A stretch of DNA of 64,000 nucleotides from an uncultured Gammaproteobacteria bacterium (GTDB lineage Bacteria; Pseudomonadota; Gammaproteobacteria; UBA4575). Below the pieces are notes generated by a model. That model did not search any database. It was not told the origin of the DNA and was given only the letters and a program-made list of their open reading frames with translations. Made by a program: the position numbers and the translations under genes. The stretch spans positions 12,256 to 76,255 of the forward strand of contig CALSUC010000002.1 of the NCBI GenBank assembly GCA_943789445.1, read 5' to 3'. Positions 1 through 26,699 of this stretch are shown one piece after another. Within the stretch, counting starts at the first letter, position 1. Each line of letters starts with the position of its first letter.

Positions 1-2521
1 TGCAGTGGGTGTCGCAGCGGCTGAGGCCAGCAAGGCCATTATCCACAGCACAGTACCGCTGACCATTACCCTGGACGATACAGCTCTGACAGCGGGTGAA
101 ACCGCAACGGTCACCTTTACCTTTCATGAGGCCGTCACTGATTTCGATAACAGTGATATAACCGTGGAAGGCGGCACGTTATCAACCGTGACTTCAGCGG
201 ATGATGGCATCACCTGGACAGCAACGTTCAGGCCGACAGCGGGCATCAAAGATGCCACTAACCTGATTAAAGTGGGCTACGACTGGACCTATGTTTCTTC
301 GGGTAATGCACCCGCTGTTGAGCATGGGCAGGTCAACGCAGCCTTTACTACGGTAGCGCCAGTGGGTGTGACTGTTTCTGGTATTGGTAACAGCATCACC
401 AAAACGGCGATGGGTGGCAGCGGTAATGCAGGCACCTTCTCGGATCAGGTCATCACTGCAGATGGCTCGGTATCGACTACGGTAGCTGAAACGAATACGG
501 CCCGTACGATTGGTCTTTCTGGCAGCGATACCGATGTAAGCTATAGCTCGATTGATTACGCGTTGATATGTGGGCCGATGGCTCGCTTCGTGTCTATGAA
601 AACCGCTCTAACAAGGGGTGGGTCGGTACTTATGCGACAGGCGATGAACTGAGTGTTGAGCGTACTGGCTCGACGATTACCTACCTGAAAAATGACGTAG
701 TACTCTACACCTCAAGAGTTGCTTCGACGGGTGATTTGCATGTGGATACCTCGCTTACTAGTAAAGGTGCTACATTGAACGACATCGTCATCAAAGGGGA
801 TAACCTGACTGCAGGCGCCACAGGCATCACTGCCAGTAGCGCTAATTTTTCGGTTGATACCGTCTACGCCACCGCTGACCATTACCCTGGACGATACAGC
901 TCTGACAGCGGGTGAAACCGCAACGGTCACCTTTACCTTTAATGAGGCCGTCACTGGTTTCGATAACAGTGATATAACCTTGGAAGGCGGCACGTTATCA
1001 GCCGTGACTTCAGCGGATGATGGCATCACCTGGACAGCAACGTTCACGCCGACAGCGGACATCAAAGATGCCACTAACCTGATTAAAGTGGGCTACGACT
1101 GGACCTATGTTTCTTCGGGTAACGCACCCGCTGTTGAGCAGGTCAACGCAGCCTTTACCACGGTAGCGCCAGTGGGTGTGACTGTTTCTGGTAACAGCAT
1201 CACCAAAACGGCGATGGGTGGCAGCGGTAATGCAGGCACCTTCTCGGATCAGGTCATCACTGCAGATGGCTCGGTATCGACTACGGTAGCTGAAACGAAT
1301 ACGGCCCGTACGATTGGTCTTTCTGGCAGCGATACCGATGTAAGCTATAGCTCGATTGATTACGCGTTGATATGCGGGCCGATGGCTCGCTTCGTGTCTA
1401 TGAAAACCGCTCTAACAAGGGGTGGGTCGGTACTTATGCGACAGGCGATGTACTGAGTGTTGAGCGTACTGGCTCGACGATTACCTACCTGAAAAATGAC
1501 GTAGTACTCTACACCTCAAGAGTTGCTTCGACGGGTGATTTGCATGTGGATACCTCGCTTACTAGTAAAGGTGCTACATTGAACGACATCGTCATCAAAG
1601 GGGATAACCTGACTGCAGGCGCCACAGACTTCATTACCAGTAGCGCTAATTTTTCGGTTGATACCGTCTCGCCACCGCTGACCATTACCCTGGACGATAC
1701 AGCTCTGGCAGCGGGTGAAACCGCAACGGTCACCTTTACCTTTAATGATGCCGTCACTGGTTTCGATAACAGTGATATAACCGTGGAAGGCGGCACGTTA
1801 TCAGCCGTGACTTCAGCGGATGATGGCATAACTTGGACAGCAACGTTCACGCCGACAGCGGACATCAGTGATAGCACTAACCTGATTAAAGTGGGCTACG
1901 ATTGGACCTATGTTTCTTCGGGTAACGCACCCGCTGTTGAGCAGGTCAACGCAGCCTTTACCACGGTAGCGCCAGTGGGTGTGACTGTTACTGGTAACAG
2001 CATCACCAAAACGGCGGGGAATGGCTGGGTAATGCAGGCACCTTCTCGGATCAGGTCATCACTGCAGATGGCTCGGTATCGACTACGGTAGCTGAAACGA
2101 ATACGCATCGTATGATTGGTCTTTCTGACAGCGATACCGATGCAAGCTATACCTCGATTGATTACGCGATTTATCTGCGGACGATGGTCGCTTGTGGTCT
2201 ATGAAAACGGCGCTAACAAGGGGCGTTCGGTAGCTATGCGACAGGCGATGTACTGAGTGTTGAGCGTACTGGCTCGACGATTACCTACCTGAAAAATGGC
2301 TCGGTATTCTACACCTCAACAGTTGCTTCGACGGGTGATTTGCATGTGGATACCTCGTTGTATACGACAGGTGCTACATTGAACGACATCGTCATCACTC
2401 AGGCGCCACAGACTTCATTGCCAGTAGCGCTAATTATGTTGTTAATACCGTCACGCCAACCATCACCATTGCTGATGTCGCGGGCGACAACACCATTAAC
2501 TACCTTGAAGACGATGTCACC

Positions 2522-3796
2522 GTGGCTATCTCAGGTACCACCACGGGGGTGGAAGATGGGCAAATTCTGACCGTGACACTGAATGGCAAGGATTACCAAG
2601 CGACGGTTTCAGGCAATGCCTGGAGTGTGGATGTGCCAGCAGCAGATGTGCAAGCATTAGCAGAGAGTAACCATAGCGTTACCGCCTTAGGAGAGAGTAA
2701 CCATAGCGTTACCGCCAATGTAACGAATGCAGTGGGTGTCGCAGCGGCTGAGGCCAGCAAGGCCATTATCCACAGCACAGCACCGCTGACCATTACCCTG
2801 GACGATACAGCTCTGACGGCGGGTGAGACCGCAACGGTCACCTTTACCTTTCATGAGGCCGTCACAGGTTTCGATAACAGTGATATAACCGTGGAAGGCG
2901 GCACGTTATCAACCGTGACTTCAGCGGATGATGGCATCACTTGGACAGCAACGTTCACGCCGACAGCGGACATCAAAGATGCCACTAACCTGATTAAAGT
3001 GGGCTACGACTGGACCTATGTTTCTTCGGGTAATGCACCCGCTGTTGAGCAGCTCAACGCAGCCTTTACCACGGTAGCGCCAGCGGGTGTGACTGTTTCT
3101 GGTATTGGTAACAGCATCACCAAAACGGCGCCTAGCTGGCATAATGCAGGCACCTTCTCGGATCAGGTCATCACTGCAGATGGCTCGGTATCGACTACGG
3201 TAGCTGAAACGAATACGGCCCGTACGATTGGTCTTTCTGACATCGATACCAATCTACTCTATAGCTCGATTGATTACGCGCTTCGTCTGAGGAGTGATGG
3301 CTCGCTTAGTGTCTATGAAAACGGCGATAATAGGGGGTGGTTCGGTACTTATTCGAGTGGCGATGTACTGAGTGTTGAGCGTACTGGCTCGACGATTACC
3401 TACCTGAAAAATGGCTCGGTATTCTACACCTCAACAGTTGCTTCGACGGGTGATTTGCATGTGGATACCTCGCTTTCTAGTGAAGGTGCTACATTGAACG
3501 ACATCGTCATCAAAGGGGATAACCTGACTGCAGGCGCCACAGACTTCACTGCCAATAGCGCTAATTTTTCGGTTGATACCGTCACGCCACCGCTGACCAT
3601 TACCCTGGACGATACAGCTCTGGCAGCGGGTGAAACCGCAACGGTCACCTTTACCTTTAATGATGCCGTCACTGGTTTCGATAACAGTGATATAACCGTG
3701 GAAGGCGGCACGTTATCAGCCGTGACTTCAGCGGATGATGGCATCACTTGGACAGCAACGTTCACGCCGACAGCGGACATCAGTGATAGCCACTAA
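2522..3796 (+). CDS. Longest intact adhesin fragment ORF in gene 1 (424 aa). It covers a module C tail, module A, module B and the next module A.
   Basis: ORF track. It contains a 24-nt internal micro-duplication (ESNHSVTALGESNHSVTA) at 2661..2715. Confidence 0.5.
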   Translation: MAISGTTTGVEDGQILTVTLNGKDYQATVSGNAWSVDVPAADVQALAESNHSVTALGESNHSVTANVTNAVGVAAAEASKAIIHSTAPLTITLDDTALTAGETATVTFTFHEAVTGFDNSDITVEGGTLSTVTSADDGITWTATFTPTADIKDATNLIKVGYDWTYVSSGNAPAVEQLNAAFTTVAPAGVTVSGIGNSITKTAPSWHNAGTFSDQVITADGSVSTTVAETNTARTIGLSDIDTNLLYSSIDYALRLRSDGSLSVYENGDNRGWFGTYSSGDVLSVERTGSTITYLKNGSVFYTSTVASTGDLHVDTSLSSEGATLNDIVIKGDNLTAGATDFTANSANFSVDTVTPPLTITLDDTALAAGETATVTFTFNDAVTGFDNSDITVEGGTLSAVTSADDGITWTATFTPTADISDSH

Positions 3797-4439
3797 CCTG
3801 ATTAAAGTGGGCTACGATTGGACCTATGTTTCTTCGGGTAACGCACCCGCTGTTGAGCAGGTCAACGCAGCCTTTACCACGGTAGCGCCAGTGGGTGTGA
3901 CTGTTACTGGTAACAGCATCACCAAAACGGCGGCGGATGGCTGGGTAATGCAGGCACCTTCTCGGATCAGGTCATCACTGCAGATGGCTCGGTATCGACT
4001 ACGGTAGCTGAAACGAATACGCATCGTATGATTGGTCTTTCTGACAGCGATACCAATGCAAGCTATAGCTCGATTGATTACGCGATTTATCTGCGGAACG
4101 ATGGCTCGCTTGTTGTCTATGAAAACGGCGCTAACAAGGGGCGTTCGGTAGCTTATTCGAGTGGCGATGTACTGAGTGTTGAGCGTACTGGCTCGACGAT
4201 TACCTACCTGAAAAATGGCTCGGTATTCTACACCTCAACAGTTGCTTCGACGGGTGATTTGCATGTGGATACCTCGTTGATACGACAGGTGCTACATTGA
4301 ACGACATCGTCATCACTCAGGCGCCACAGACTTCATTGCCAGTAGCGCTAATTATGTTGTTAATACCGTCACGCCAACCATCACCATTGCTGATGTCGCG
4401 GGCGACAACACCATTAACTACCTTGAAGACGATGTCACC

Positions 4440-5267
4440 GTGGCTATCTCAGGTACCACCACGGGGGTGGAAGATGGGCAAGTTCTGACCGTGACACTGA
4501 ATGGCAAGGATTACCAAGCGACGGTTTCAGGCAATGCCTGGAGTGTGGATGTGCCAGCAGCAGATGTGCAAGCATTAGCAGAGGGTAACCATAGCGTTAC
4601 CGCCAATGTAACGAATGCAGTGGGTGTCGCAGCGGCTGAGGCCAGCAAGGCCATTATCCACAGCACAGCACCGCTGACCATTACCCTGGACGATACAGCT
4701 CTGACGGCGGGTGAGACCGCAACGGTCACCTTTACCTTTCATGAGGCCGTCACTGATTTCGATAACAGTGATATAACCGTGGAAGGCGGCACGTTATCAA
4801 CCGTGACTTCAGCGGATGATGGCATCACCTGGACAGCAACGTTCACGCCGACAGCGGGCATCAAAGATGCCACTAACCTGATTAAAGTGGGCTACGACTG
4901 GACCTATGTTTCTTCGGGTAATGCACCCGCTGTTGAGCATGGGCAGGTCAACGCAGCCTTTACCACGGTAGCGCCAGTGGGTGTGACTGTTTCTGGTATT
5001 GGTAACAGCATCACCAAAACGGCGATGGGTGGCAGCGGTAATGCAGGCACCTTCTCGGATCAGGTCATCACTGCAGATGGCTCGGTATCGACTACGGTAG
5101 CTGAAACGAATACGGCCCGTACGATTGGTCTTTCTGGCAGCGATACCGATGTAAGCTATAGCTCGATTGATTACGCGTTGATATGCGGGCCGATGGCTCG
5201 CTTCGTGTCTATGAAAACCGCTCTAACAAGGGGTGGGTCGGTACTTATGCGACAGGCGATGTACTGA
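4440..5267 (+). CDS. Adhesin fragment ORF (275 aa) covering modules C, A and part of B.
   Basis: ORF track. Same repeat protein. Confidence 0.45.
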   Translation: MAISGTTTGVEDGQVLTVTLNGKDYQATVSGNAWSVDVPAADVQALAEGNHSVTANVTNAVGVAAAEASKAIIHSTAPLTITLDDTALTAGETATVTFTFHEAVTDFDNSDITVEGGTLSTVTSADDGITWTATFTPTAGIKDATNLIKVGYDWTYVSSGNAPAVEHGQVNAAFTTVAPVGVTVSGIGNSITKTAMGGSGNAGTFSDQVITADGSVSTTVAETNTARTIGLSGSDTDVSYSSIDYALICGPMARFVSMKTALTRGGSVLMRQAMY

Positions 5268-8200
5268 GTGTTGAGCGTACTGGCTCGACGATTACCTACC
5301 TGAAAAATGACGTAGTACTCTACACCTCAAGAGTTGCTTCGACGGGTGATTTGCATGTGGATACCTCGCTTACTAGTAAAGGTGCTACATTGAACGACAT
5401 CGTCATCAAAGGGGATAACCTGACTGCAGGCGCCACAGGCATCACTGCCAGTAGCGCTAATTTTTCGGTTGATACCGTCACGCCACCGCTGACCATTACC
5501 CTGGACGATACAGCTCTGACAGCGGGTGAGACCGCAACGGTCACCTTTACCTTTAATGAGGCCGTCACTGGTTTCGATAACAGTGATATAACCTTGGAAG
5601 GCGGCACGTTATCAGCCGTGACTTCAGCGGATGATGGCATCACCTGGACAGCAACGTTCACGCCGACAGCGGACATCAAAGATGCCACTAACCTGATTAA
5701 AGTGGGCTACGACTGGACCTATGTTTCTTCGGGTAACGCACCCGCTGTTGAGCAGGTCAACGCAGCCTTTACCACGGTAGCGCCAGTGGGTGTGACTGTT
5801 ACTGGTAACAGCATCACCAAAACGGCGGGGATGGCGCGGTAATGCAGGCACCTTCTCGGATCAGGTCATCACTGCAGATGGCTCGGTATCGACTACGGTA
5901 GCTGAAACGAATACGGCCCGTACGATTGGTCTTTCTGACAGCGATACCGATGTAAGCTATAGCTCGATTGATTACGCGTTGATATGCTGGGCCGATGGCT
6001 CGCTTCGTGTCTATGAAAACGGCTCTAACAAGGGGTGGGTCGGTACTTATGCGACAGGCGATGTACTGAGTGTTGAGCGTACTGGCTCGACGATTACCTA
6101 CCTGAAAAATGGCGTCGGTATTCTACACCTCAAGAGTTGCTTCGACGGGTGATTTGCATGTGGATACCTCGCTTTCTAGTACAGGTGCTACATTGAACGA
6201 CATCGTCATCAAAGGGGATAACCTGACTGCAGGCGCCACAGACTTCATTACCAGTAGCGCTAATTTTTCGGTTGATACCGTCGTCACGCCACCGCCGACC
6301 ATTACCCTGGACGATACAGCTCTGACGGTGGGTGAAACCGCAACGGTCACCTTTACCTTTAATGAGGCCGTCACTGGTTTCGATAACAGTGATATAACCG
6401 TGGAAGGCGGCACGTTATCAGCCGTGACTTCAGCGGATGATGGCATCACCTTGGACAGCAACGTTCACGCCGACAGCGGACATCAATGATGCCACTAACC
6501 TGATTAAAGTGGGCTACGATTGGACCTATGTTTCTTCGGGTAACGCACCCGCTGTTGAGCAGGTCAACGCAGCCTTTACCACGGTAGCGCCAGTGGGTGT
6601 GACTGTTACTGGTAACAGCATCACCAAAACGGCGGGGATGGCTGGTAATGCAGGCACCTTCTCGGATCAGGTCATCACTGCAGATGGCTCGGTATCGACT
6701 ACGGTAGCTGAAACGAATACGCATCGTATGATTGGTCTTTCTGACAGCGATACCGATGTAAGCTATACCTCGATTGATTACGCGTTGTATCTGGCGAACG
6801 ATGGTCGATTGGGGTCTATGAAAACGGCGCTAACAAGGGGAGTTCGGTACTTATGCGACAGGCGATGTACTGAGTGTTGAGCGTACTGGCTCGACGATTA
6901 CCTACCTGAAAAATGGCTCGGTATTCTACACCTCAACAGTTGCTTCGACGGGTGATTTGCATGTGGATACCTCGTTGTTAGTACAGGTGCTACATTGAAC
7001 GACATCGTCATCAAAGGGGATAACCTGACTGCAGGCGCCACAGACTTCATTGCCAGTAGCGCTAATTTTTCGGTTGATACCGTCACGCCACCGCTGACCA
7101 TTACCCTGGACGATACAGCTCTGACGGCGGGTGAAACCGCAACGGTCACCTTTACCTTTAATGAGGCCGTCACCGGTTTCGATAACAGTGATATAACCGT
7201 GGAAGGCGGCACGTTATCAGCCGTGACTTCAGCGGATGATGGCATCACCTGGACAGCAACGTTCACGCCGACAGCGGACATCAATGATGCCACTAACCTG
7301 ATTAAAGTGGGCTACGATTGGACCTATGTTTCTTCGGGTAACGCACCCGCTGTTGAGCAGGTCAACGCAGCCTTTACCACGGTAGCGCCAGTGGGTGTGA
7401 CTGTTACTGGTAACAGCATCACCAAAACGGCGGCGGATGGCTGGGTAATGCAGGCACCTTCTCGGATCAGGTCATCACTGCAGATGGCTCGGTATCGACT
7501 ACGGTAGCTGAAACGAATACGGCTCGTATGATTGGTCTTTCTGACAGCGATACCAATGTAAGCTATACCTCGATTGATTACGCGATTTATCTGCGGAACG
7601 ATGGTCGCTTGTGGTCTATGAAAACGGCGCTAACAAGGGGACGTTCGGTAGCTTATGCGACAGGCGATGTACTGAGTGTTGAGCGTACTGGCTCGACGAT
7701 TACCTACCTGAAAAATGGCTCGGTATTCTACACCTCAACAGTTGCTTCGACGGGTGATTTGCATGTGGATACCTCGTTGTATACGACAGGTGCTACATTG
7801 AACGACATCGTCATCAAAGGGGATAACCTGACTGCAGGCGCCACAGACTTCATTGCCAGTAGCGCTAATTTTTCGGTTGATACCTAGCCACCGCTGACCA
7901 TTACCCTGGACGATACAGCTCTGACGGCGGGTGAAACCGCAACGGTCACCTTTACCTTTAATGAGGCCGTCACTGGTTTCGATAACAGTGATATAACCTT
8001 GGAAGGCGGCACGTTATCAGCCGTGACTTCAGCGGATGATGGCATAACTTGGACAGCAACGTTCACGCCGACAGCGGACATCAATGATGCCACTAACCTG
8101 ATTAAAGTGGGCTACGATTGGACCTATGTTTCTTCGGGTAACGCACCCGCTGTTGAGCAGGTCAACGCAGCCTTTACCACGGTAGCGCCAGTGGGTGTGA

Positions 8201-9356
8201 CTGTTACTGGTAACAGCATCACCAAAACGGCGGCGGTGGCTGGGTAATGCAGGCACCTTCTCGGATCAGGTCATCACTGCAGATGGCTCGGTAGTCGACT
8301 ACGGTAGCTGAAACGAATACGGCTCGTATGATTGGTCTTTCTGACAGCGATACCGATGCAAGCTATACCACGATTGATTACGCGATTTTTCTGCGGAACG
8401 ATGGTCGCTTGTGGTCTTTGAAAACGGCGCTACAAGGGGACGTTCGGTAGCTTATGCGACAGGCGATGTACTGAGTGTTGAGCGTACTGGCTCGACGATT
8501 ACCTACCTGAAAAATGGCTCGGTATTCTACACCTCAACAGTTGCTTCGACGGGTGATTTGCATGTGGATACCTCGTTGTATACGACAGGTGCTACATTGA
8601 ACGACATCGTCATCAAAGGGGATAACCTGACTGCAGGCGCCACAGACTTCATTGCCAGTAGCGCTAATTTTTCGGTTGATACCTCTGCCACCGCTGACCA
8701 TTACCCTGGACGATACAGCTCTGGCGGCGGGTGAAACCGCAACGGTCACCTTTACCTTTAATGAGGCCGTCACTGGTTTCGATAACAGTGATATAACCTT
8801 GGAAGGCGGCACGTTATCAGCCGTGACTTCAGCGGATGATGGCATCACCTGGACAGCAACGTTCACGCCGACAGCGGACATCAGTGATAGCCACTAACCT
8901 GATTAAAGTGGGCTACGACTGGACCTATGTTTCTTCGGGTAACGCACCCGCTGTTGAGCAGGTCAACGCAACCTTTACCACGGTAGCGCCAGTGGGTGTG
9001 ACTGTTACTGGTAACGACATCACCAAAACGGCGGCGTGGCTGGGTAATGCAGGCACCTTCTCGGATCAGGTCATCACTGCAGATGGCTTTATGTCGACTA
9101 CGGTAGCTGAAACGAATACGTATCGTATGATTGGTCTTTCTGACAGCGATACCGATGTAAGCTATACCACGATTGATTACGCGATTTTTCTGGCGAACAA
9201 TGGTGCGCTTCTTGTCTTTGAAAACGGCGCTTACAAGGGGGGTTCGGTAGCTATGCGACAGGCGATGTACTGAGTGTTGAGCGTACTGGCTCGACGATTA
9301 CCTACCTGAAAAATGGCTCGGTATTCTACACCTCAACAGTTGCTTCGACGGGTGAT

Positions 9357-9908
9357 TTGCATGTGGATACCTCGTTGTATACGACAGGTGCTACATTGAA
9401 CGACATCGTCATCAAAGGGGATAACCTGACTGCAGGCGCCACAGACTTCATTGCCTCTAGCGCTAATTTTTCGGTTGATACAGCAGGTACAGCAGCTATT
9501 GTAGGTACTTCAGGAGCAGATACCCTTGTAGGTGATGCAAATGATAATATCATCACAGGTGGTGATGGAGACGATACGATGACTGGTAGTGGTGGTCATG
9601 ATATCTTTGATTTCAATCTTTCGACCTTAGGGAATACAGATACGATATCTGATTTCATACTGGGAGCTGAAGCAACAGCGGATACGGATAAATTAGATTT
9701 AAGTGACTTACTCTCTTATACAACCGGTGATGACTTGGCACACTTTATTCAAGTGCTAGATGGTGGTACAGATGTCACGCTAAACATTGATAAAGATGGT
9801 GAATCTGATTTTACGACCCCTGAGCAGATAATTATTTTAGAAGGTATTGGAACAGGTTCTTTGGACTTGGCTGCTTTGACAGCGGACGATAATCTAGTCG
9901 TTTTATAA
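9357..9908 (+). CDS. C-terminal fragment of adhesin 1. RTX calcium-binding nonapeptide repeats plus the T1SS C-terminal target domain occupy 9483..9908.
   Basis: GGxGxDxxx repeats and the DLSDLL motif are present. A stop at 9906-9908 is followed by the terminator. Confidence 0.7.
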   Translation: MHVDTSLYTTGATLNDIVIKGDNLTAGATDFIASSANFSVDTAGTAAIVGTSGADTLVGDANDNIITGGDGDDTMTGSGGHDIFDFNLSTLGNTDTISDFILGAEATADTDKLDLSDLLSYTTGDDLAHFIQVLDGGTDVTLNIDKDGESDFTTPEQIIILEGIGTGSLDLAALTADDNLVVL

Positions 9909-10047
9909 AAAGTAGCGATAAATAAAAGCCCTCACTAACGTTGTTGTTTGGTGAGGGCTTTTTTTTTGTAGTACAAGCAACGTATCATAAGTAATTACTC
10001 GGTAATGCCGAGGGCTACTAGTGATTGAATAAGATTGATACTGCCCT
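9909..10047. repeat. Copy 1 of an identical ~139-bp direct repeat forming the 3' flank of an adhesin gene. It contains a terminator.
   Basis: The string 'aaagtagcgataaataaaagccctcactaacgttgttgtttggtgagggcttttttttt...gattgatactgccct' is identical to 19169..19307. The flanks diverge immediately after (10048 'ttcggg' versus 19308 'aaacat'). Confidence 0.9.
9928..9967 (+). terminator. Rho-independent terminator of adhesin 1.
   Basis: Stem gccctcac(9928-9935)/gtgagggc(9951-9958) followed by a T9 run. Confidence 0.85.
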
Positions 10048-13030
10048 TTCGGGTGCTCACCTAATGCCTTTATTATCCGCTGCCCCAGAGCGACCACAAG
10101 TCGTCGATCTACGCGCTCAAGGGCATGCGCCGGTCAATGTGATTATTTCTTGTTACATGACTGGAGTTACCTGCTTTTCCAAATATAGTCAAAGATAACC
10201 TAACTTAATTTTGGTGAGGTTTGACCGCTCAGTTCGGACTTTAAGACGGATTAAAGTGCTCTTCTTTATTTGGTTAATATATAATTTTTTTGTTTTTATG
10301 GGGCTCCAGTTAATGCGAGCTGCCGCTGAATAAAAATAATCTATAAAACAATATGTAACAGATAGCGGGCATGGGGAGATCCACATTGCCTAGGATTTAG
10401 AATTCAGCCGATGGTGGCAGGCCTAGTATGGCCGCTTACCTAAAAGATGCGAGTTGGCTACTCGGAGATAGTGGACTGCGTATTAATTATTGTACTTTTT
10501 AACAGTTCACTAAATATTATAAAAATTAAAGGTAGCATGGTTATGAGTGAAAAAATTCAAGAAGCGACCAGCTCAATGTATAAGAATTCAAGGGGTGTCG
10601 CAGCGGCTGAGCAGCAAGGCCATTATCTATCACAGCACAGCACCGCTGACCATTACCCTGGACGATACAGCTCTGACGGCGGGTGAAACCGCAACGGTCA
10701 CCTTTACCTTTAATGAGGCCGTCACCGGTTTCGATAACAGTGATATAAGCTTGGAAGGCGGCACGTTATCAGCCGTGACTTCAGCGGATGATGGCATCAC
10801 CTGGACAGCAACGTTCACGCCGACAGCGGACATCAAAGATGCCACTAACCTGATTAAAGTGGGCTACGACTGGACCTATGTTTCTTCGGGTAACGCACCC
10901 GCTGTTGAGCAGCTCAACGCAGCCTTTACCACGGTAGCGCCAGTGGGTGTGACTGTTACTGGTAACAACATCACCAAAACGGCGGGGGAGGCTGGGCTAA
11001 TGCAGGCGCCTTCTCGGATCAGGTCATCACTGCAGATGGCTCGGTAGTCGACTACGGTAGCTGAAACGAATACGGCCCGTATGATTGGTCTTTCTGACAG
11101 CGATACCGATGCAAGCTATGCCACGATTGATTACGCGATTTATTTGCGGAACGATGGCTGCGCTTGTGTCTTTGAAAACGGCGCTAGCAAGGGGACGTTC
11201 GGTACTTATTCGAGTGGCGATGTACTGAGTGTTGAGCGTACTGGCTCGACGATTACCTACCTGAAAAATGGCTCGGTATTCTACACCTCAGCGGTTGCTT
11301 CGACGGGTGATTTGCATGTGGATACCTCGTTGCATACGACAGGTGCTACATTGAACGACATCGTCATCAAAGGGGATAACCTGACTGCAGGCGCCACAGA
11401 CTTCATTGCCTCTAGCGCTAATTTTTCGGTTGATACCGTCAGCCACCGCTGACCATTACCCTGGACGATACAGCTCTGACGGCGGGTGAAACCGCAACGG
11501 TCACCTTTACCTTTAATGAGGCCGTCACCGGTTTCGATAACAGTGATATAACCGTGGAAGGCGGCACGTTATCAGCCGTGACTTCAGCGGATGATGGCAT
11601 CACTTGGACAGCAACGTTCACGCCGACAGCGGACATCAATGATGCCACTAACCTGATTAAAGTGGGCTACGATTGGACCTATGTTTCTTCGGGTAACGCA
11701 CCCGCTGTTGAGCAGCTCAACGCAGCCTTTACCACGGTAGCGCCAGTGGGTGTGACTGTTACTGGTAACAGCATCACCAAAACGGCGGGGGTGGCTGGGC
11801 TAATGCAGGCACCTTCTCGGATCAGGTCATCACTGCAGATGGCTCGGTAGTCGACTACGGTAGCTGAAACGAATACGGCTCGTATGATTGGTCTTTCTGA
11901 CAGCGATACCGATGCAAGCTATAGCCACGATTGATTACGCGATTTATCTGCGGAACGATGGTGCGCTTGTGGTCTTTGAAAACGGCGCTAGCAAGGGGAC
12001 GTTCGGTACTTATTCGAGTGGCGATGTACTGAGTGTTGAGCGTACTGGCTCGACGATTACCTACCTGAAAAATGGCTCGGTATTCTACACCTCAACGGTT
12101 GCTTCGACGGGTGATTTGCATGTGGATACCTCGTTGCATACGACAGGTGCTACATTGAACGACATCGTCATCAAAGGGGATAACCTGACTGCAGGCGCCA
12201 CAGACTTCATTGCCAGTAGCGCTAATTTTTCGGTTGATACCATCACCACCGCTGACCATTACCCTGGACGATACAGCTCTGACGGCGGGTGAAACCGCAA
12301 CGGTCACCTTTACCTTTAATGAGGCCGTCACTGGTTTCGATAACAGTGATATAACCGTGGAAGGCGGCACGTTATCAGCCGTGACTTCAGCGGATGATGG
12401 CATAACTTGGACAGCAACGTTCACGCCGACAGCGGACATCAATGATGCCACTAACCTGATTAAAGTGGGCTACGATTGGACCTATGTTTCTTCGGGTAAC
12501 GCACCCGCTGTTGAGCAGGTCAACGCAGCCTTTACCACGGTAGCGCCAGTGGGTGTGACTGTTACTGGTAACAGCATCACCAAAACGGCGGCGATGGCTG
12601 GGCTAATGCAGGCACCTTCTCGGATCAGGTCATCACTGCAGATGGCTCGGTATCGACTACGGTAGCTGAAACGAATACGGCTCGTATGATTGGTCTTTCT
12701 GACAGCGATACCGATGCAAGCTATACCACGATTGATTACGCGATTTATCTGCGGAACAATGGCTCGCTTGGGGTCTTTGAAAACGGCGCTAACAAGGGGA
12801 CGTTCGGTAGCTTATGCGACAGGCGATGTACTGAGTGTTGAGCGTACTGGCTCGACGATTACCTACCTGAAAAATGGCTCGGTATTCTACACCTCAACAG
12901 TTGCTTCGACGGGTGATTTGCATGTGGATACCTCGTTGCATACGACAGGTGCTACATTGAACGACATCGTCATCAAAGGGGATAACCTGACTGCAGGCGC
13001 CACAGACTTCATTGCCTCTAGCGCTAATTT

Positions 13031-13837
13031 TTGGTTAATACCGTCACGCCAACCATCACCATTGCTGATGTCGCGGGCGACAACACCATTAACTACCTTG
13101 AAGACGATGTCGACGTGGCTATCTCAGGTACCACCACGGGGGTGGAAGATGGGCAAGTTCTGACCGTGACACTGAATGGCAAGGATTACCAAGCGACGGT
13201 TTCAGGCGATGCCTGGAGTGTGGATGTGCCAGCAGCAGATGTGCAAGCATTAGCAGAGGGTAACCATAGCGTTACCGCCAATGTAACGAATGCAGTGGGT
13301 GTCGCAGCGGCTGAGGCCAGCAAGGCCATTATCCATAACAGCACAGCACCGCTGACCATTACCCTGGACGATACAGCTCTGGCGGCGGGTGAAACCGCAA
13401 CGGTCACCTTTACCTTTAATGAGGCCGTCACTGGTTTCGATAACAGTGATATAACCGTGGAAGGCGGCACGTTATCAGCCGTGACTTCAGCGGATGATGG
13501 CATCACTTGGACAGCAACGTTCACGCCGACAGCGGACATCAATGATGCCACTAACCTGATTAAAGTGGGCTACGATTGGACCTATGTTTCTTCGGGTAAC
13601 GCACCCGCTGTTGAGCAGGTCAACGCAGCCTTTACCACGGTAGCGCCAGTGGGTGTGACTGTTACTGGTAACAGCATCACCAAAACGGCGGCGAATGGCT
13701 GGACTAATGCAGGCACCTTCTCGGATCAGGTCATCACTGCAGATGGCTCGGTATCGACTACGGTAGCTGAAACGAATACGGATCGTATGATTGGTCTTTC
13801 TGACAGCGATACCAATGCTAAGCTATACCACGATTGA
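13031..13837 (+). CDS. Adhesin 2 fragment ORF (268 aa) covering modules C, A and the start of B.
   Basis: ORF track. Confidence 0.45.
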   Translation: MVNTVTPTITIADVAGDNTINYLEDDVDVAISGTTTGVEDGQVLTVTLNGKDYQATVSGDAWSVDVPAADVQALAEGNHSVTANVTNAVGVAAAEASKAIIHNSTAPLTITLDDTALAAGETATVTFTFNEAVTGFDNSDITVEGGTLSAVTSADDGITWTATFTPTADINDATNLIKVGYDWTYVSSGNAPAVEQVNAAFTTVAPVGVTVTGNSITKTAANGWTNAGTFSDQVITADGSVSTTVAETNTDRMIGLSDSDTNAKLYHD

Positions 13838-14648
13838 TTACGCGATTTATCTGCGGAACAATGGTGCGCTTGGGGTCTATGAAAACGGCGCTAACAAGGG
13901 GACGTTCGGTAGCTATGCGACAGGCGATGTACTGAGTGTTGAGCGTACTGGCTCGACGATTACCTACCTGAAAAATGGCTCGGTATTCTACACCTCAACA
14001 GTTGCTTCGACGGGTGATTTGCATGTGGATACCTCGTTGTATACGACAGGTGCTACATTGAACGACATCGTCATCAAAGGGGATAACCTGACTGCAGGCG
14101 CCACAGACTTCATTGCCTCTAGCGCTAATTTTTCGGTTAATACCGTCACGCCAACCATCACCATTGCTGATGTCGCGGGCGACAACACCATTAACTACCT
14201 TGAAGACGATGTCGACGTGGCTATCTCAGGTACCACCACGGGGGTGGAAGATGGGCAAGTTCTGACCGTGACACTGAATGGCAAGGATTACCAAGCGACG
14301 GTTTCAGGCGATGCCTGGAGTGTGGATGTGCCAGCAGCAGATGTGCAAGCATTAGCAGAGGGTAACCATAGCGTTACCGCCAATGTAACGAATGCAGTGG
14401 GTGTCGCAGCGGCTGAGGCCAGCAAGGCCATTATCCATAACAGCACAGCACCGCTGACCATTACCCTGGACGATACAGCTCTGGCGGCGGGTGAAACCGC
14501 AACGGTCACCTTTACCTTTAATGAGGCCGTCACTGGTTTCGATAACAGTGATATAACCGTGGAAGGCGGCACGTTATCAGCCGTGACTTCAGCGGATGAT
14601 GGCATCACCTTGGACAGCAACGTTCACGCCGACAGCGGACATCAATGA
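13791..14648 (+). CDS. Adhesin 2 fragment ORF (285 aa) covering modules B, C and A.
   Basis: ORF track. Confidence 0.45.
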   Translation: MVFLTAIPMLSYTTIDYAIYLRNNGALGVYENGANKGTFGSYATGDVLSVERTGSTITYLKNGSVFYTSTVASTGDLHVDTSLYTTGATLNDIVIKGDNLTAGATDFIASSANFSVNTVTPTITIADVAGDNTINYLEDDVDVAISGTTTGVEDGQVLTVTLNGKDYQATVSGDAWSVDVPAADVQALAEGNHSVTANVTNAVGVAAAEASKAIIHNSTAPLTITLDDTALAAGETATVTFTFNEAVTGFDNSDITVEGGTLSAVTSADDGITLDSNVHADSGHQ

Positions 14649-16876
14649 TACCACTAACCTGATTAAAGTGGGCTACGATTGGACCTATGTTTCTTCGGGT
14701 AACGCACCCGCTGTTGAGCAGGTCAACGCAGCCTTTACCACGGTAGCGCCAGTGGGTGTGACTGTTACTGGTAACAGCATCACCAAAACGGCGGCGGATG
14801 GCTGGTAATGCAGGCACCTTCTCGGATCAGGTCATCACTGCAGATGGCTCGGTATTCGACTACGGTAGCTGAAACGAATACGCATCGTATGATTGGTCTT
14901 TCTGACAGCGATACCAATGCTAAGCTATACCTCGATTGATTACGCGATTTATCTGCGGACAATGGTGCGCTTGGGTCTATGAAAACGGCGCTAACAAGGG
15001 GACGTTCGGTACTTATGCGACAGGCGATGTACTGAGTGTTCAGCGTACTGGCTCGACGATTACCTACCTGAAAAATGGCTCGGTATTCTACACCTCAACA
15101 GTTGCTTCGACGGGTGATTTGCATGTGGATACCTCGTTGATACGACAGGTGCTACATTGAACGACATCGTCATCGACTCAGGCGCCACAGACTTCATTGC
15201 CACTAGCGCTAATTATTTGGTTAATACCGTCACGCCAACCATCACCATTGCTGATGTCGCGGGCGACAACACCATTAACTACCTTGAAGACGATGTCGAC
15301 GTGGCTATCTCAGGTACCACCACGGGGGTGGAAGATGGGCAAGTTCTGACCGTGACACTGAATGGCAAGGATTACCAAGCGACGGTTTCAGGCGATGCCT
15401 GGAGTGTGGATGTGCCAGCAGCAGATGTGCAAGCATTAGCAGAGGGTAACCATAGCGTTACCGCCAATGTAACGAATGCAGTGGGTGTCGCAGCGGCTGA
15501 GGCCAGCAAGGCCATTATCTATAACAGCACAGCACCGCTGACCATTACCCTGGACGATACAGCTCTGGCGGCGGGTGAAACCGCAACGGTCACCTTTACC
15601 TTTAATGAGGCCGTCACTGGTTTCGATAACAGTGATATAACCGTGGAAGGCGGCACGTTATCAGCCGTGACTTCAGCGGATGATGGCATCACCTTGGACA
15701 GCAACGTTCACGCCGACAGCGGACATCAATGATACCACTAACCTGATTAAAGTGGGCTACGATTGGACCTATGTTTCTTCGGGTAACGCACCCGCTGTTG
15801 AGCAGGTCAACGCAGCCTTTACCACGGTAGCGCCAGTGGGTGTGACTGTTACTGGTAACAGCATCACCAAAACGGCGGCGGATGGCTGGTAATGCAGGCA
15901 CCTTCTCGGATCAGGTCATCACTGCAGATGGCTCGGTATCGACTACGGTAGCTGAAACGAATACGCATCGTATGATTGGTCTTTCTGACAGCGATACCAA
16001 TGTAAGCTATACCTCGATTGATTACGCGATTTATCTGCGGACAATGGTGCGCTTGTGGTCTATGAAAACGGCGCTAACAAGGGGACGTTCGGTACTTATG
16101 CGACTGGCGATGTACTGAGTGTTCAGCGTACTGGCTCGACGATTACCTACCTGAAAAATGGCTCGGTATTCTACACCTCAACAGTTGCTTCGACGGGTGA
16201 TTTGCATGTGGATACCTCGTTGATACGACAGGTGCTACATTGAACGACATCGTCATCAAAGCGGATAACCTGACTGCAGGCGCCACAGACTTCATTGCCA
16301 GTAGCGCTAATTTTTCGGTTAATACCATCACGCCAACCATCACCATTGCTGATGTCGCGGGCGACAACACCATTAACTACCTTGAAGACGATGTCAACGT
16401 GGCTATCTCAGGTACCACCACGGCGGTGGAAGATGGGCAAGTTCTGACCGTGACACTGAATGGCAAGGATTACCAAGCGACGGTTTCAGGCAATGCCTGG
16501 AGTGTGGTGTGCCAGCAGCAGATGTGCAAGCATTAGCAGAGGGTAACCATAGCGTTACCGCCAATGTAACGAATGCAGTGGGTGTCGCAGCGGCTGAGGC
16601 CAGCAAGGCCATTATCTATAACAGCACAGCACCGCTGACCATTACCCTGGACGATACAGCTCTGACGGCGGGTGAAACCACTCAGGTTACCTTTACCTTT
16701 CATGAGGCCGTCACGTGGAAAATTTTGACATCAATGATATTGCGGTTGAAAACGGCACCCGTTCATCGAGTCCTGTCGACTTCAGATGATGTGGAATAAC
16801 TTCACAGCAACATTAACGCCAGATTCTGCCGCGGCCGATAGCACCAATAAAATTTCCGTGGGTAATCGCTGGAACT

Positions 16877-18220
16877 TTGTTGGGTCTGCTCCTGAATCGG
16901 GTAATAAACCGGTTGTGTTTGTATCAGAAGTTGGTGTGGACACGATTGGTAATAATATTTTTAAAACGGCGGCGACTGGCTGGTAATGCAGGCACCTTCT
17001 CGGATCAGGTCATCACTGCAGATGGCTCGGTATCGACTACGGTAGCTGAAACGAATACGCATCGTATGATTGGTCTTTCTGACAGCGATACCAATGTAAG
17101 CTTTACCTCGATTGATTACGCGATTTATCTGAGGAGCAATGGTGCGCTTGCGGTCTTTGAAAACGGCGCTAACAAGGGGGAGTTCGGTACTTATTCGAGT
17201 GGCGATGTACTGAGTGTTGAGCGCTTCGGCTCGACGATTACCTACCTGAAAAATGGCTCGGTATTCTACACCTCAACAGTTGCTTCGACGGGTGATTTGC
17301 ATGTGGATACCTCGTTGCATACGACAGGTGCTACATTGCAAAATGTGGTTATCAATAATGGCGAGTTGGTTAGCAGTAATAATTATGCGGTGAACACTCT
17401 GACGCCAACCATTAATATTGATGCGATTGCCACAGATAATGTTTTGGATTTCGTTGAAGATAATCACTCGTTGCTTGTCACCGGTACAACCACCAACGTA
17501 TCAGATGGGCAAGTGGTGACTGTGACTATCGCCGGTGTCGAGTATACGAGCAGTGTGACGGGTAATGTATGGGGCGTTAAGGTGCCGCAGGCGGTTGCTG
17601 CGGCGCTATCCTCAAGCGTTACGGTGGCTGTGAGTGTCAGTAACGCATCAGGCGTTAACGCAACGGCCAATACGACTTTCACTCACACTACTGATGAGCC
17701 TGTGGTCATTACTATCAGTGATAATGATATAGATTCATCAGAAACGGCCGTGGTTACCTTCCGGTTCAAGGAGGCTGTTACAGACTTCGAGCTTGCTGAT
17801 ATTAATGTGGATTCAGGCACCTTATCTAATCTTGTTAGCACGGATGGCGGTACAACCTTCACCGCGACCTTTACACCAACACCGGGTGTGAAGAGCGACG
17901 TCAGCAAAATCTCGATTGGTTCCAATTGGACGTATCAGTCGTCTGGTGCATCGCCTGTAGTATCAGACATCAAGGTCGCCTTTGAAAATGAAGTGGGTGT
18001 TGATGTAACTACTAATAATATTGTCAAAACAGGATTTGCTGGTTGGACTTCAGGTGCCTTTTCTGAGAATTCCCTGGCAGGGGATGGTTACGTTGCAACT
18101 ACGGTAGCTGAAACGAATACGCATCGTATGATTGGTCTTTCTGACAGCGATACCAATGTAAGCTTTGACACGATTGATTACGCGTTTATCTGCGTGCAAT
18201 GGTGCGCTTGTGGTCTTTGA
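16877..18220 (+). CDS. Adhesin 2 fragment ORF (447 aa) spanning the diverged repeat copies B, C', A'' and B'.
   Basis: ORF track. It is ~50% identical to the homogenised copies (TVAETNTHRMIGLSDSDTNVSF is retained). Confidence 0.5.
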   Translation: MLGLLLNRVINRLCLYQKLVWTRLVIIFLKRRRLAGNAGTFSDQVITADGSVSTTVAETNTHRMIGLSDSDTNVSFTSIDYAIYLRSNGALAVFENGANKGEFGTYSSGDVLSVERFGSTITYLKNGSVFYTSTVASTGDLHVDTSLHTTGATLQNVVINNGELVSSNNYAVNTLTPTINIDAIATDNVLDFVEDNHSLLVTGTTTNVSDGQVVTVTIAGVEYTSSVTGNVWGVKVPQAVAAALSSSVTVAVSVSNASGVNATANTTFTHTTDEPVVITISDNDIDSSETAVVTFRFKEAVTDFELADINVDSGTLSNLVSTDGGTTFTATFTPTPGVKSDVSKISIGSNWTYQSSGASPVVSDIKVAFENEVGVDVTTNNIVKTGFAGWTSGAFSENSLAGDGYVATTVAETNTHRMIGLSDSDTNVSFDTIDYAFICVQWCACGL

Positions 18221-18448
18221 AAACGGCATTAGCAAGGGGGCGTTCGGTAGCTATGCGACAGGCGATGTACTGAGTGTTCAGCGTACTGGCTCGACGATTA
18301 CCTACCTGAAAAATGGCTCGGTATTCTACACCTCAACAGTTGCTTCGACGGGTGATTTGCATGTGGATACCTCGTTGGATACGACAGGCAGTACATTAAA
18401 GAATATTGTGATCAGCGATGGAAGGCTTGCACCAGCAGCGATTACAGC

Positions 18449-19153
18449 GTGGATACGCAGTTTAGTCTTGAAAATGCTAGCGTGGCGGGTAATCAAGTTG
18501 TGCTCACCTTTGATGCGACGATTAATGCACTTAGCACTCCGTCACTTCAATCTTTTGATATTCAGGTTGATGGCGCGACCAGAAACGTTACGGCGATTTC
18601 CTTTTCGGGCAATACGGCTACGTTAACCATTGATGGAAAAGCGGTGGTTGATACTGATTCAGTCGAATTCTCTTATAGTCAGCTAGGTTCTGCTGGTTTT
18701 GAGAGTGCTGCGGGAGCTGTTGTTGCTAATAACAACATTGAGGCTGTGTTTGGCACCACAGGTAATAATGCTATTTCTGGAACCTCTGCCAGTGAATATG
18801 TGTTTGGTGGCAGTGGTAATGATACTATTACTGGTGGTGCTGGGAATGATATTCTGACAGGTGGCGCTGGTAGCGATACTTTTGATTACAACAACACTAC
18901 AGATGGCAGCGACACCATTACCGACTTTACCGTGGGGAGTGGTGGTGACAGCTTAGATTTACGTGACCTTTTAGATTACGCTAGTGGTGATACCTTAGCT
19001 GACTACATTGAATTGACAAACGATGGGACAGACGTCACCTTAAAAATAGATAAAGACGGGGGCGGTGATGAATTTACCAGCCCTGATGTAACAATTACTC
19101 TACAAGGGATCAATGATGCAGCAGGTTACTTTGGCATCACTAGAGACCGATAA
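18449..19153 (+). CDS. C-terminal fragment of adhesin 2. It carries a unique beta-rich region, RTX repeats and the T1SS C-terminal target domain.
   Basis: Contains GGSGNDTITGGAGNDILTGGAGSDTFDY and DSLDLRDLLDY. The stop is followed by the terminator copy. Confidence 0.7.
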   Translation: MDTQFSLENASVAGNQVVLTFDATINALSTPSLQSFDIQVDGATRNVTAISFSGNTATLTIDGKAVVDTDSVEFSYSQLGSAGFESAAGAVVANNNIEAVFGTTGNNAISGTSASEYVFGGSGNDTITGGAGNDILTGGAGSDTFDYNNTTDGSDTITDFTVGSGGDSLDLRDLLDYASGDTLADYIELTNDGTDVTLKIDKDGGGDEFTSPDVTITLQGINDAAGYFGITRDR

Positions 19154-19168
19154 CTTAGCCGTATTGTA

Positions 19169-19307
19169 AAAGTAGCGATAAATAAAAGCCCTCACTAACG
19201 TTGTTGTTTGGTGAGGGCTTTTTTTTTGTAGTACAAGCAACGTATCATAAGTAATTACTCGGTAATGCCGAGGGCTACTAGTGATTGAATAAGATTGATA
19301 CTGCCCT
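19169..19307. repeat. Copy 2 of the ~139-bp direct repeat (3' flank of adhesin 2).
   Basis: Identical to 9909..10047. Confidence 0.9.
19188..19227 (+). terminator. Rho-independent terminator of adhesin 2 (identical to the 9928..9967 copy).
   Basis: Same hairpin and T-run. Confidence 0.85.
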
Positions 19308-21070: not shown

Positions 21071-21484
21071 ATGTATAAGAAATATATCGTGATGCTGGCC
21101 CTGTTTTTGTGTACGAGTGTGGTGCAGGCCGAGTTGGAACATATTACGGTGCAGCAGCTGTCGGCATTGATGGAAGAAGGCATCACTGTTATCGATATCC
21201 GTACCCCTGAAGAATGGCAACAAACTGGCATTGTCGAGGGCAGTCATCCGATTATGTTTTTTGATCAAAAGGGTAAGCCACATATCGAAGAATGGATGCA
21301 GCAAACCGATGACTTAATTAATCCTGAGCAAGCAGTGATCTTGATCTGTCGTTCGGGTAATCGCACTACGAGTGTCGGCACTTTTCTCAGCAAACAATTG
21401 GGTTTTAAACAGGTGTATAGCGTGAAGGGTGGTATTAACAGTTGGTTGAAGGCAGGGAACAAGACACAGCCGCTTGAACCATAG
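21071..21484 (+). CDS. Single-domain rhodanese-like sulfurtransferase with an N-terminal signal peptide.
   Basis: Has a hydrophobic leader (MYKKYIVMLALFLCTSVVQA), an active-site loop CRSGNRT and a GGAG RBS. Confidence 0.8.
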   Translation: MYKKYIVMLALFLCTSVVQAELEHITVQQLSALMEEGITVIDIRTPEEWQQTGIVEGSHPIMFFDQKGKPHIEEWMQQTDDLINPEQAVILICRSGNRTTSVGTFLSKQLGFKQVYSVKGGINSWLKAGNKTQPLEP

Positions 21485-21489
21485 GGGGA

Positions 21490-24525: not shown

Positions 24526-24531
24526 GTTGTT

Positions 24532-25587: not shown

Positions 25588-25658
25588 CGGTTAGTTCCTT
25601 CGATCTGAACAATATCATACAACCGACTTTGTCTTATATAACAAGATGGTTCAGGAAG

Positions 25659-25708
25659 GGCCTAAACCCAGTGCTCGTACTGTCGCACTAAGGCAGGAAT
25701 TTTAGGCC
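25659..25708 (-). terminator. Nested hairpin immediately after the radical SAM gene stop (ggcctaaa...tttaggcc with an inner agtgc/gcact stem). It is a possible terminator or processing structure with no clear U-run.
   Basis: An 8-bp perfect inverted repeat plus an inner 5-bp stem. It is located between the rSAM stop (25715) and the MFP start. Confidence 0.3.
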
Positions 25709-25714
25709 TATGAG

Positions 25715-26680: not shown

Positions 26681-26699
26681 AAGTTACGTTACTAGATCA

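Follow-up and report, generated by a model that had tools for sequence, protein, structure and literature searches.

The window analysed here, a 64,000-nucleotide stretch of one contig, comes from an uncultured gammaproteobacterium that is abundant in environmental metagenomes. At its start lie two tandem paralogous genes on the plus strand, and, in keeping with an earlier sequence-only reading that assigned them to the RTX/type I secretion (T1SS) class, the 3' ends of both match PF00353 (HemolysinCabind) and TIGR03661 (T1SS_VCA0849). Gene 1, which begins before the window start, is represented by its 3' part only (1–9908, stop codon at 9906–9908) and shares 98% identity with gene Y of contig L081. 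Its C-terminus (9504–9872) comprises RTX nonapeptides at 9504–9605 and a T1SS C-terminal target domain at 9639–9872, and at 9924–9968 lies an intrinsic terminator, a hairpin followed by a U-tract (dG −22.8 kcal/mol, z −5.2). After a spacer (9909–10536), the first ~140 bp of which recur after gene 2, follows the complete gene 2 (10537–19169, ~2870 codons). Its ATG at 10537 is preceded by AAAGGTAG, and its N-terminus of ~35 residues before the first repeat has an in-frame counterpart in L081. The true stop of gene 2 is most likely the codon at 19167–19169 and not the apparent one at 19151–19153. The C-terminal region (18455–19114) consists of a SWM_repeat (18455–18682), RTX nonapeptides (18779–18880) and the T1SS C-terminal target domain (18911–19114), and the terminator at 19184–19228 is identical to that of gene 1. 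TIGR03661 scored 50.9 bits in gene 2 and 36.2 bits in gene 1 (cut-off 17.6), while the PF00353 matches, just upstream of the secretion signal, reached 47.6 and 32.1 bits (cut-off 23). Each protein carries ~3–4 RTX nonapeptides, and TRF reported a 27-bp period at 18806–18870 within the RTX block of gene 2.

Anatomy of the repeat array

Self-BLAST of positions 1–22000 gave long diagonals at offsets of 803–816, 1100, 1621, 1911 and 2202, which bears out the repeat periodicity claimed earlier. A search with one 803-bp reference unit recovered 17 full-length copies, a divergent one (78%) and a partial one, each of them on the plus strand; overall, we count 17 close and two divergent copies of an A-B unit of ~800 bp across the two head-to-tail genes. 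The copies had been described as near-perfectly identical in DNA, but ungapped pairwise identity among the 17 units ranges from 90.7 to 99.0% (mean 94.9%), with another 1–3% of gap columns.

The array of gene 1 (55–9485) holds 11 units, starting at 55, 870, 1673, 2781, 3588, 4669, 5484, 6290, 7089, 7889 and 8689. Gene 2 has six units (10641–16629; starts at 10641, 11444, 12247, 13347, 14449 and 15533), the last four of which are followed by C modules at 13047–13346, 14149–14448, 15233–15532 and 16331–16629. Two divergent units come next (16630–18460), namely A'B'C' at 16630–17730 and A''B'' at 17731–18460. Gene 1 also contains C modules, one at 2454–2780 with an in-frame 30-bp tandem duplication at 2657–2716 and a second at 4372–4668, and the window opens, at positions 1–54, with the tail of yet another. 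In all, the ~300-bp C insert was found in six close copies, present in six units, and one divergent copy.

The Ig-like assignment of two of the modules held up in profile searches. Module A matched Pfam Big_12 with up to 177.7 bits, and the optional insert C matched NCBIfam Ca_tandemer with 64.7–80.1 bits in the three close modules scored (cut-off 50), the divergent C' module scoring 48 bits, slightly under that cut-off. The Ig_like_ice model also matches module C, including the copy at 2454–2780.

Frame changes within the repeats

The sequence-only reading implied readable, intact open reading frames and was silent on frame changes. The longest open stretch in 1–19153 is, however, 485 codons, and at least 59 frame changes are present in all. 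Frameshift-aware alignment placed 28 of them, the full number for gene 1, in 55–9485 and 29 in 10641–18460, to which single changes near 10606 and at 19124 add up to 31 for gene 2. When the frames were followed through the 57 changes in the repeats, not one in-frame stop was met over the aligned 17.3 kb (~5,750 codons). The changes cluster in hot spots at unit residues 118–121, 169–177, 187 and 233, one of which has both plus and minus shifts, and of ten columns with a single-base deletion, nine are polymorphic among the copies (p about 1e-6). Comparison of the window with L081, a contig of the same population, over 8.6 kb of repeat region showed 92 substitutions and 44 indel events. Most of these differences sit at columns that vary between copies (73 of 89 substitutions inside A-B units, 42 of 44 indels), and for 65 of the 89 the alternative allele is present in another copy.

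The surroundings behave differently. The unique 10-kb flank at 21487–31414 aligned with zero gap columns to six further assemblies from this population (99.8–99.92% identity), and genes in 19.4–64 kb align end to end with their Pfam profiles. Short-read contigs were open at places where the window is broken: L089, 99.2% identical over 3.4 kb, has 346 open codons over 18130–19170, and L091, 96.9% identical, has 338 over 8893–9908. In a third, L090, which comes from a relative, 1175 codons are open across three complete A-B units. Fragmentation next to intact neighbours was also seen in other repetitive genes on contigs from the same study, and RTX adhesin open reading frames have been noted to be rarely assembled accurately (bioRxiv 10.1101/2025.09.30.679566). 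Because the flank is free of indels, the indels fall on inter-copy variable columns and the short-read contigs are open, we conclude that the ~59 frameshifts are most likely consensus errors of long-read metagenome assembly and not biological, the real genes being intact. They were probably made where reads from different repeat copies were mixed. Direct demonstration of the errors covers the final ~1 kb of either gene, and for the gene bodies the conclusion draws on the error pattern and on analogy to the 89%-identical relative.

We consider it very unlikely that these are real, recently decayed pseudogenes, whose frameshifts arose in the cells and were spread between copies by gene conversion. 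Gene conversion of real lesions could explain why the same unit positions are hit again and again. Against decay, shifts of opposite sign occur at one hot spot, and the indels fall on columns that vary between copies. Of the substitutions that separate the two assemblies, 18 are synonymous and 73 non-synonymous, a lack of synonymous bias as under neutral decay, although diversifying selection or cross-talk where copies vary would account for this ratio as well. Also against decay, no nonsense codon was met over the 17.3 kb once frames were followed. Fragmented frames do occur in all long-read assemblies of the clade; the indels are nevertheless not the same in assemblies whose adjacent flank is ~99.9% identical over ~850 nt (one substitution, no indel), and short-read contigs that carry this sequence or a related one are open throughout. 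Whereas a pseudogene carries its lesions in the DNA of the organism, those found here are absent from short-read contigs and differ between assemblies of one population. Because of the probable assembly errors, copy numbers and fine-scale readings of concerted evolution at this locus are unsafe, and the unit counts above are best taken as estimates.

Variation of the locus between assemblies

That the locus would vary between strains was also borne out, as assemblies 99.8–99.9% identical in the flank have different paralogs, or none, beside gshA. Contig L081/L085, from the same population, has gene Y, the counterpart of gene 1, directly before gshA and lacks gene 2; L091 likewise has a gene-1-type end there, and L086 no such gene. 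This raises the prospect that the two-gene tandem and its copy numbers are assembly products, formed by collapse, expansion or the joining of strain variants, and that the real locus differs. The ~1.2 kb of extra repeat and the aberrant unit junction at 21008/21011 in L081/L085 fit such an origin. We regard it as unlikely, given that a gene-2-type end was found beside gshA independently in L089 and that the spacer between genes 1 and 2 is no copy of the X-Y spacer of L081, the two being 87–90% identical beyond the first ~140 bp. Moreover, the direct repeat of ~140 bp that follows each gene would offer a simple recombination route between two real arrangements.

Predicted fold and variability of module B

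The earlier reading had left module B unassigned, and our searches of Pfam and NCBIfam agree: neither B nor B-rich relatives matched any family at E≤0.1, SPRY, LamG and CBM models included, and a PDB sequence search gave no relatives. The intact module B of unit 2781 (3044–3589) yielded an AF2 model (pLDDT 79.5, pTM 0.80) in which the predicted fold is a SPRY/concanavalin A (ConA)-like bent beta-sandwich. B thus shares its modelled bent beta-sandwich with SPRY domains (Pfam PF00622) but does not match their sequence model, and its identity to SPRY/B30.2 and ConA-like lectins (SPRYD3 2yyo, TRIM PRYSPRY, CBM66 4b1m, legume lectins) is only 7–18%. It also differs from SPRY/ConA-like domains in being a putatively extracellular bacterial tandem repeat instead of an intracellular eukaryotic adaptor domain. 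Matches in BFVD were to phage structural and receptor-binding proteins.

The B family is large, with 4364 cluster representatives at E≤1e-3 and up to 25 copies per protein. Uncharacterised bacterial giant proteins (such as P0096, P0017, P0104 and P0098) share the B-type family with the window at 30–56% identity and likewise carry the module many times over (25 copies in P0096, of 6469 aa), interspersed with domains of Ig-like, cadherin-like, fn3 or PKD type. They differ from the window in the partners of B, namely fn3, Big_9, cadherin and a GH5 cellulase, and the combination of Big_12, RTX and TIGR03661 was not seen among the giant B-type proteins scanned.

Sequence variation in B is concentrated in four loop patches; in TRIM PRYSPRY domains, too, variation sits in loops. 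Between adjacent units of an intact short-read contig, pN/pS in B was 1.06–1.95, and pN was 0.15–0.20 in B versus 0.05 in A. Since the loop patches, these ratios and the differing gene content beside gshA point the same way, we tentatively put forward that the tandem B modules may be a SPRY-like binding battery, in which diversifying selection would keep the loops distinct, gene conversion would homogenise Ig-like spacers and domain cores, and the paralogs X, gene 1/Y and gene 2 would recombine with one another, reshuffling loop cassettes as well as entire genes inside a single population.

Secretion and anchoring

The description of the products as giant RTX/T1SS adhesins stands as far as RTX/T1SS repeat proteins are concerned. 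The term adhesin is an inference, because gene 2 has no retention module and the 45 kb downstream contain none of the T1SS genes. Gene 2 and gene Y of L081 both begin ~35 residues before the first Big_12 and neither shows a retention module, the N-terminal stretches (10547–11044, and 9604–10023 of L081) giving zero NCBIfam matches and Big_12 alone in Pfam. Across 19.4–64 kb we found no T1SS, LapG or LapD genes, and the only HlyD-family protein is paired with an AcrB-type RND pump.

In giant size, tandem Ca2+-dependent Ig-like extender domains and a C-terminal RTX nonapeptide block followed by the T1SS signal, the two proteins resemble RTX fibrillar adhesins (LapA, MapA, FrhA, SiiE, MpIBP), which likewise occur as two or more paralogs in a genome, at loci that vary between strains and are often mis-assembled (bioRxiv 10.1101/2025.09.30.679566). 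Those adhesins, however, have a pore-plugging N-terminal retention module, which is missing in gene 2 and in the gene 1 ortholog of L081, and linked ABC transporter, membrane fusion and outer-membrane genes, often with LapG/LapD, none of which occur in the 45 kb seen. In their distal ligand-binding region, binding domains project from split extender domains, whereas no separate C-proximal ligand-binding region was found here and the putative binding module B forms part of the chain in each unit, at least 11 times in gene 1 and eight times in gene 2; the RTX block is also short by comparison, with only 3–4 nonapeptides.

The short N-terminus without a Pfam or NCBIfam retention-module match, the absence of LapG, LapD and T1SS genes nearby, and the SWM_repeat ('cyanobacterial long protein repeat') domain adjoining the RTX block of gene 2 would all suit released or loosely attached RTX proteins, either matrix- or S-layer-like or of the SwmB/oscillin sort of motility-associated giant surface proteins, with SPRY-like modules serving self-association or polymer binding. 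We give such non-anchored proteins roughly one chance in four, as the N-terminus of gene 1 lies outside the window, other means of anchoring are conceivable, and Ig domains of the extender type, which include Ca_tandemer, are characteristic of fibrillar adhesins (bioRxiv 10.1101/2025.09.30.679566).

Discussion

Taken as a whole, positions 1–19228 probably hold two separately terminated genes for giant Ca2+-binding, type-I-secreted proteins, intact in reality and broken by assembly errors, that form a fibre with lectin-like modules. Each protein would be a chain of A-B units, with A a Big_12 Ig-like spacer and B a SPRY/ConA-fold module with hypervariable loops; some units gain a Ca_tandemer Ig domain (C), and a short RTX beta-roll followed by a VCA0849-type secretion domain would close the chain. 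Most likely, such a protein serves as a long extracellular fibre, stiffened by calcium, that displays many slightly different lectin-like binding modules and so mediates multivalent attachment or aggregation.

The locus resembles ~45 small open reading frames or a pseudogene purely through consensus errors at inter-copy variable sites, and unless the reads themselves are checked, it is unsafe to rely on annotations, pseudogene counts or 'concerted evolution' readings taken from such loci. Giant RTX/T1SS repeat proteins are an ordinary kind of bacterial surface protein. What sets these apart is module B, a large family (>4,000 clusters at 50% identity) of SPRY/ConA-fold repeats, predicted to be extracellular, for which Pfam and NCBIfam hold no model, and its reiteration along an RTX-secreted fibre as opposed to a single placement at the tip. 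If the variable loops of B bind ligands, this would be a multivalent-attachment design unlike that of studied RTX adhesins, and if loop diversification operates as tentatively proposed, the fibre would amount to a bacterial analogue, secreted by a T1SS, of SPRY receptors with variable loops.

Tandem units and gene ends

Because the unit exceeds the 500-bp period limit of Tandem Repeats Finder, which returned only two short arrays, we relied on a BLAST self-comparison of positions 1–22,000, where long collinear matches lay at offsets of ~803–816 bp, 1100 bp and their sums. Each unit consists of an Ig-like module A and a module B, and the 1100-bp period arises because a ~300-bp insert (module C, also Ig-like) follows six of them. 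With the 803-bp unit 10641–11443 as query, we recovered 17 full copies on the forward strand at 90–98% identity, starting at 55, 870, 1673, 2781, 3588, 4669, 5484, 6290, 7089, 7889 and 8689 in gene 1 and at 10641, 11444, 12247, 13347, 14449 and 15533 in gene 2, together with a divergent forward-strand copy at 16630 (78% identical to the query) and a partial one at 18098. The periodicity and the at least 18 copies noted in the sequence-only reading are therefore real and far beyond chance. The near-perfect identity that it attributed to the copies was refuted: the ungapped pairwise identity of the 17 units ranged from 90.7 to 99.0% (mean 94.9%), with means of 94.4% and 97.0% inside genes 1 and 2, respectively, and 94.8% across the two, and the copies did not cluster by gene. 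One C module carries an in-frame 30-bp tandem duplication (2657–2716; LAESNHSVTA/LGESNHSVTA) that is absent from the other C copies.

Gene 1 (+) runs from beyond the window start to a stop codon at 9906–9908 and is separated by a spacer (9909–10536) from gene 2 (+), which begins with the ATG at 10537, preceded by AAAGGTAG, and ends near 19160; gshA (19471–20973) lies downstream. Both C-termini matched PF00353 (RTX nonapeptides) and TIGR03661 (T1SS C-terminal target domain, VCA0849 type) above curated cut-offs, and gene 2 additionally carries a SWM_repeat domain. The RTX/T1SS reading of the gene ends was thus borne out, and both features on which it had been staked, the ~805/1100-bp periodicity and the RTX/T1SS models at the C-termini, were present. 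The same hairpin with a U-tract lies behind both genes (9924–9968 and 19184–19228; dG -22.8 kcal/mol, matched by 0 of 200 shuffles), a structure overlooked by a simple terminator scan and revealed by folding. Searching the full window for Rfam families and tRNAs gave no matches.

Frameshifts are confined to the repeats and best explained by misassembly

Two giant genes had been proposed as readable, which did not hold up: no giant ORF exists in 1–19153, where the longest open stretch measures 485 codons and the forward strand of the repeat region is split into ~45 short ORFs across all three frames. Frameshift-aware alignment of each unit to the sole intact one (2781–3587) gave 28 frame changes for gene 1 and 29 for gene 2; with the frame followed through them, neither gene showed an in-frame stop. 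The codons for the N-terminus of gene 2 hold one further frameshift, near 10606, and an extra G at 19124 moves the stop of this gene from 19167–19169 (…LETDNLAVL*) to 19151–19153. The frameshifts recur at unit residues 118–121, 137, 169–177, 187 and 233, with both +1 and -1 changes at the same spot.

Unlike the repeats, to which the frameshifts are limited, the flank at 19.4–64 kb is intact, with ~25 genes matching Pfam models end to end; the segment 21487–31414 aligned to six other contigs at 99.8–99.92% identity with zero gap columns. The same split was seen against one of the six, a long-read contig from the same population (L081/L085; ENA ERZ10646675 contig_7820). Over ~850 nt of adjacent flank, starting at the terminator and reaching ~590 nt into gshA, it differed from the window by a single substitution and by no indel; in an 8.6-kb comparison with gene 1 there were 92 substitutions and 44 indel events, each assembly being open where the other is broken. 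Among the 89 substitutions inside A-B units, 73 fell at columns that vary between copies (background 16%), and for 65 the alternative base was found in another repeat copy. Likewise, 42 of the 44 indels lay at or next to a variable column (background 38%), and nine of ten single-base deletion columns within the window were polymorphic between copies (p about 1e-6). This is the pattern expected from a consensus of reads placed on the wrong repeat copy. Homopolymer-length error as the sole cause of the indels was rejected, as many lie outside homopolymers and inter-copy column variability predicts them better.

Contigs from short reads agreed. In L089 (ERZ23491064 scaffold_2607; 99.2% identical over 3.4 kb) a single 346-codon frame is open over window positions 18130–19170, a stretch in which the window carries indels at 18186, 18193, 18196, 18428 and 19124; in L091 (a JGI contig, 96.9% identical) 338 codons are open over 8893–9908, where the window is shifted at 9238. 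A third, L090 (JGI, about 89% identical), holds a single 1175-codon frame covering other Ig-like domains, three complete A-B units, a SWM-like domain, the RTX block and the secretion domain. The contigs L084 and L087 were unusable for checking gene 2, their C-terminal type being different. Long-read contigs of the same study also contain other fragmented repetitive genes (this repeat-protein family and RHS/YD) beside whole single-copy genes, which suggests that repeat-associated fragmentation is general in the data set. On one of them (L083, 14451–18695; ERZ10646685 contig_26434), RHS/YD-repeat genes split into short ORFs, with a Y1 transposase gene between them, sit beside a related repeat-protein gene. 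A recent survey describes RTX adhesin ORFs as rarely assembled accurately and often annotated as pseudogenes (bioRxiv 10.1101/2025.09.30.679566). We consider it highly improbable that the frameshifts are real in the organism; assembly error best explains the gene breakage and is proven only for the last kilobase of each gene.

Near the 3' end of gshA, an extra C at 20954 relative to L089 leaves a product of 500 instead of 515 residues, and TIGR01434 was matched only up to position 495 of 512. Four contigs (L084, L085, L087 and L088) show one or a few gap columns each across this stretch; L086 aligns without gaps and yields the same 500-residue call. The extra C may be a true variant, or else a consensus error left over beyond the repeats.

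Module B varies in predicted loops and has a probable SPRY-like fold

After frame correction, module A was nearly invariant and the differences between copies clustered in four patches of B: the tetrapeptide preceding NAGTFS, ETNT-x-R … IDYA, L-x-x-DG-x-L-x-V-x-ENG-x-x-KG-x-FG and SL-x-x-x-GATL. According to the structural model described below, these patches would lie mostly in loops. The frameshifts coincide with them, as a failure of assembly at differing sites would predict. No third-position excess was seen among polymorphic columns (45/42/32 at codon positions 1/2/3). Because the window sequence is error-prone, we turned to the intact contig L090, in which three adjacent units gave pN/pS of 1.06–1.95 for B, with pN of 0.15–0.20, compared with a pN of about 0.05 for A. 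Given these unit differences, the loop hypervariability of B is probably genuine, and it may reflect diversifying selection. The multi-allelic columns raised the idea that a diversity-generating retroelement had produced the variable sites, which seems unlikely: the window showed no reverse transcriptase, and in the few variable columns inspected the base A was not consistently in the majority.

Module A belongs to Pfam Big_12 (up to 177.7 bits) and C to NCBIfam Ca_tandemer (64.7–80.1 bits for the three close inserts scored, 48 bits for the divergent C' module of gene 2; cut-off 50), C also matching Ig_like_ice below that model's cut-off. For B, there was no Pfam or NCBIfam match even at E≤0.1, and profile searching against the PDB turned up no meaningful sequence relative. 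AlphaFold2, supplied with a small set of aligned B modules taken from distant proteins, predicted an all-beta sandwich (pLDDT 79.5, pTM 0.80). A phmmer search of 1.84 billion cluster representatives retrieved 4364 proteins at E≤1e-3, of which 556 passed E≤1e-30. B recurs within single proteins, reaching 25 copies in one of 6469 residues, and the domains found alongside it include fn3, Big_9, cadherin-like, PKD and GH5. Based on the fold model and this wide spread, we regard B as a common, unnamed extracellular repeat of predicted SPRY/ConA fold, a fold that serves sugar or protein binding. Structural matches in BFVD, 28–30% identical, included a structural protein of Cellulophaga phage phi13:1 and a protein of an uncultured marine phage with the annotation Ash2-like SPRY (S0A0Y9 and A0A8D9CD80); the domain family may therefore be used in phage host recognition.

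The locus beside gshA differs between closely related contigs

Contigs that are 99.8–99.9% identical in the flank have different genes adjoining gshA, consistent with the strain-variable locus anticipated from the sequence. A gene-2-type end occupies this position in the window and L089, a gene-1-type end in L081/L085 and L091, an unrelated paralog with a gene-1-type tail in L084 and another type in L087; L088 retains only a 3' remnant, in which the terminator is preceded by the final ~65 nt of a gene-1-type end. L086 (ERZ10646678 contig_16433) has no repeat-protein gene there, its homology beginning at window position 19393. The array thus behaves as a presence/absence island in this population. 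On L086, 99.8% identical from 19393 on, GroES/GroEL, an amidase and a 380-residue protein replace the whole array. About 140 bp after the stop codon are duplicated behind both genes and would therefore give a recombination route between arrangements. L081 contains about 1.2 kb more repeat than gene 1. It also has an aberrant unit junction at its positions 21008/21011, where the sequence leaps from unit offset 729 to 255. This junction would cut short a B and an A module and is probably a mis-join in that assembly, or else real unequal recombination. Copy number should not be trusted in any of these assemblies.

The window comes from an uncultured gammaproteobacterium. Searches with the gshA protein found relatives at 84–98% in environmental metagenome contigs and 'MAG: Gammaproteobacteria bacterium' entries at about 61–63%; among the matches listed in a genome-contig scan, relatives were 43–55% identical and lacked synteny. 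Neither the window's AcrB-type protein nor the proteins P0001, P0002 and P0093 had an exact match on record. The flank also encodes three rhodanese-domain proteins, Fae (formaldehyde-activating enzyme), a DmsABC-like molybdopterin oxidoreductase, CbbQ/NorQ and a 420-residue PFK-family phosphofructokinase (21071–21484, 34642–35190, 37024–41645, 44447–45295, 52032–53294, 55012–55860 and 58308–59186), a set that would presumably fit a sulfur-oxidising or C1-using chemolithoautotroph.

A putative secreted fibre with many related binding sites

Judging from their domain content, the products of both genes are most likely giant repeat proteins that depend on Ca2+ and leave the cell by type I secretion, export being indicated by the RTX block together with the TIGR03661 domain. 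In one defining respect they differ from RTX adhesins: the retention module was not found in gene 2 or in the L081 ortholog of gene 1, where only ~35 residues precede the first Ig domain. No T1SS, LapG or LapD genes occur in the 45 kb downstream. These observations speak for proteins that are released or otherwise attached, a serious though less likely alternative. Reiteration of an Ig spacer and a SPRY-like module would create a fibre with many related, non-identical putative binding sites, binding being suggested by the predicted fold, and such a fibre could serve multivalent attachment, aggregation or matrix building. The biology is that of a variant of a well-known kind of protein, in which a single element is moderately new, namely the reiterated, loop-variable SPRY-like module for which no family model exists.
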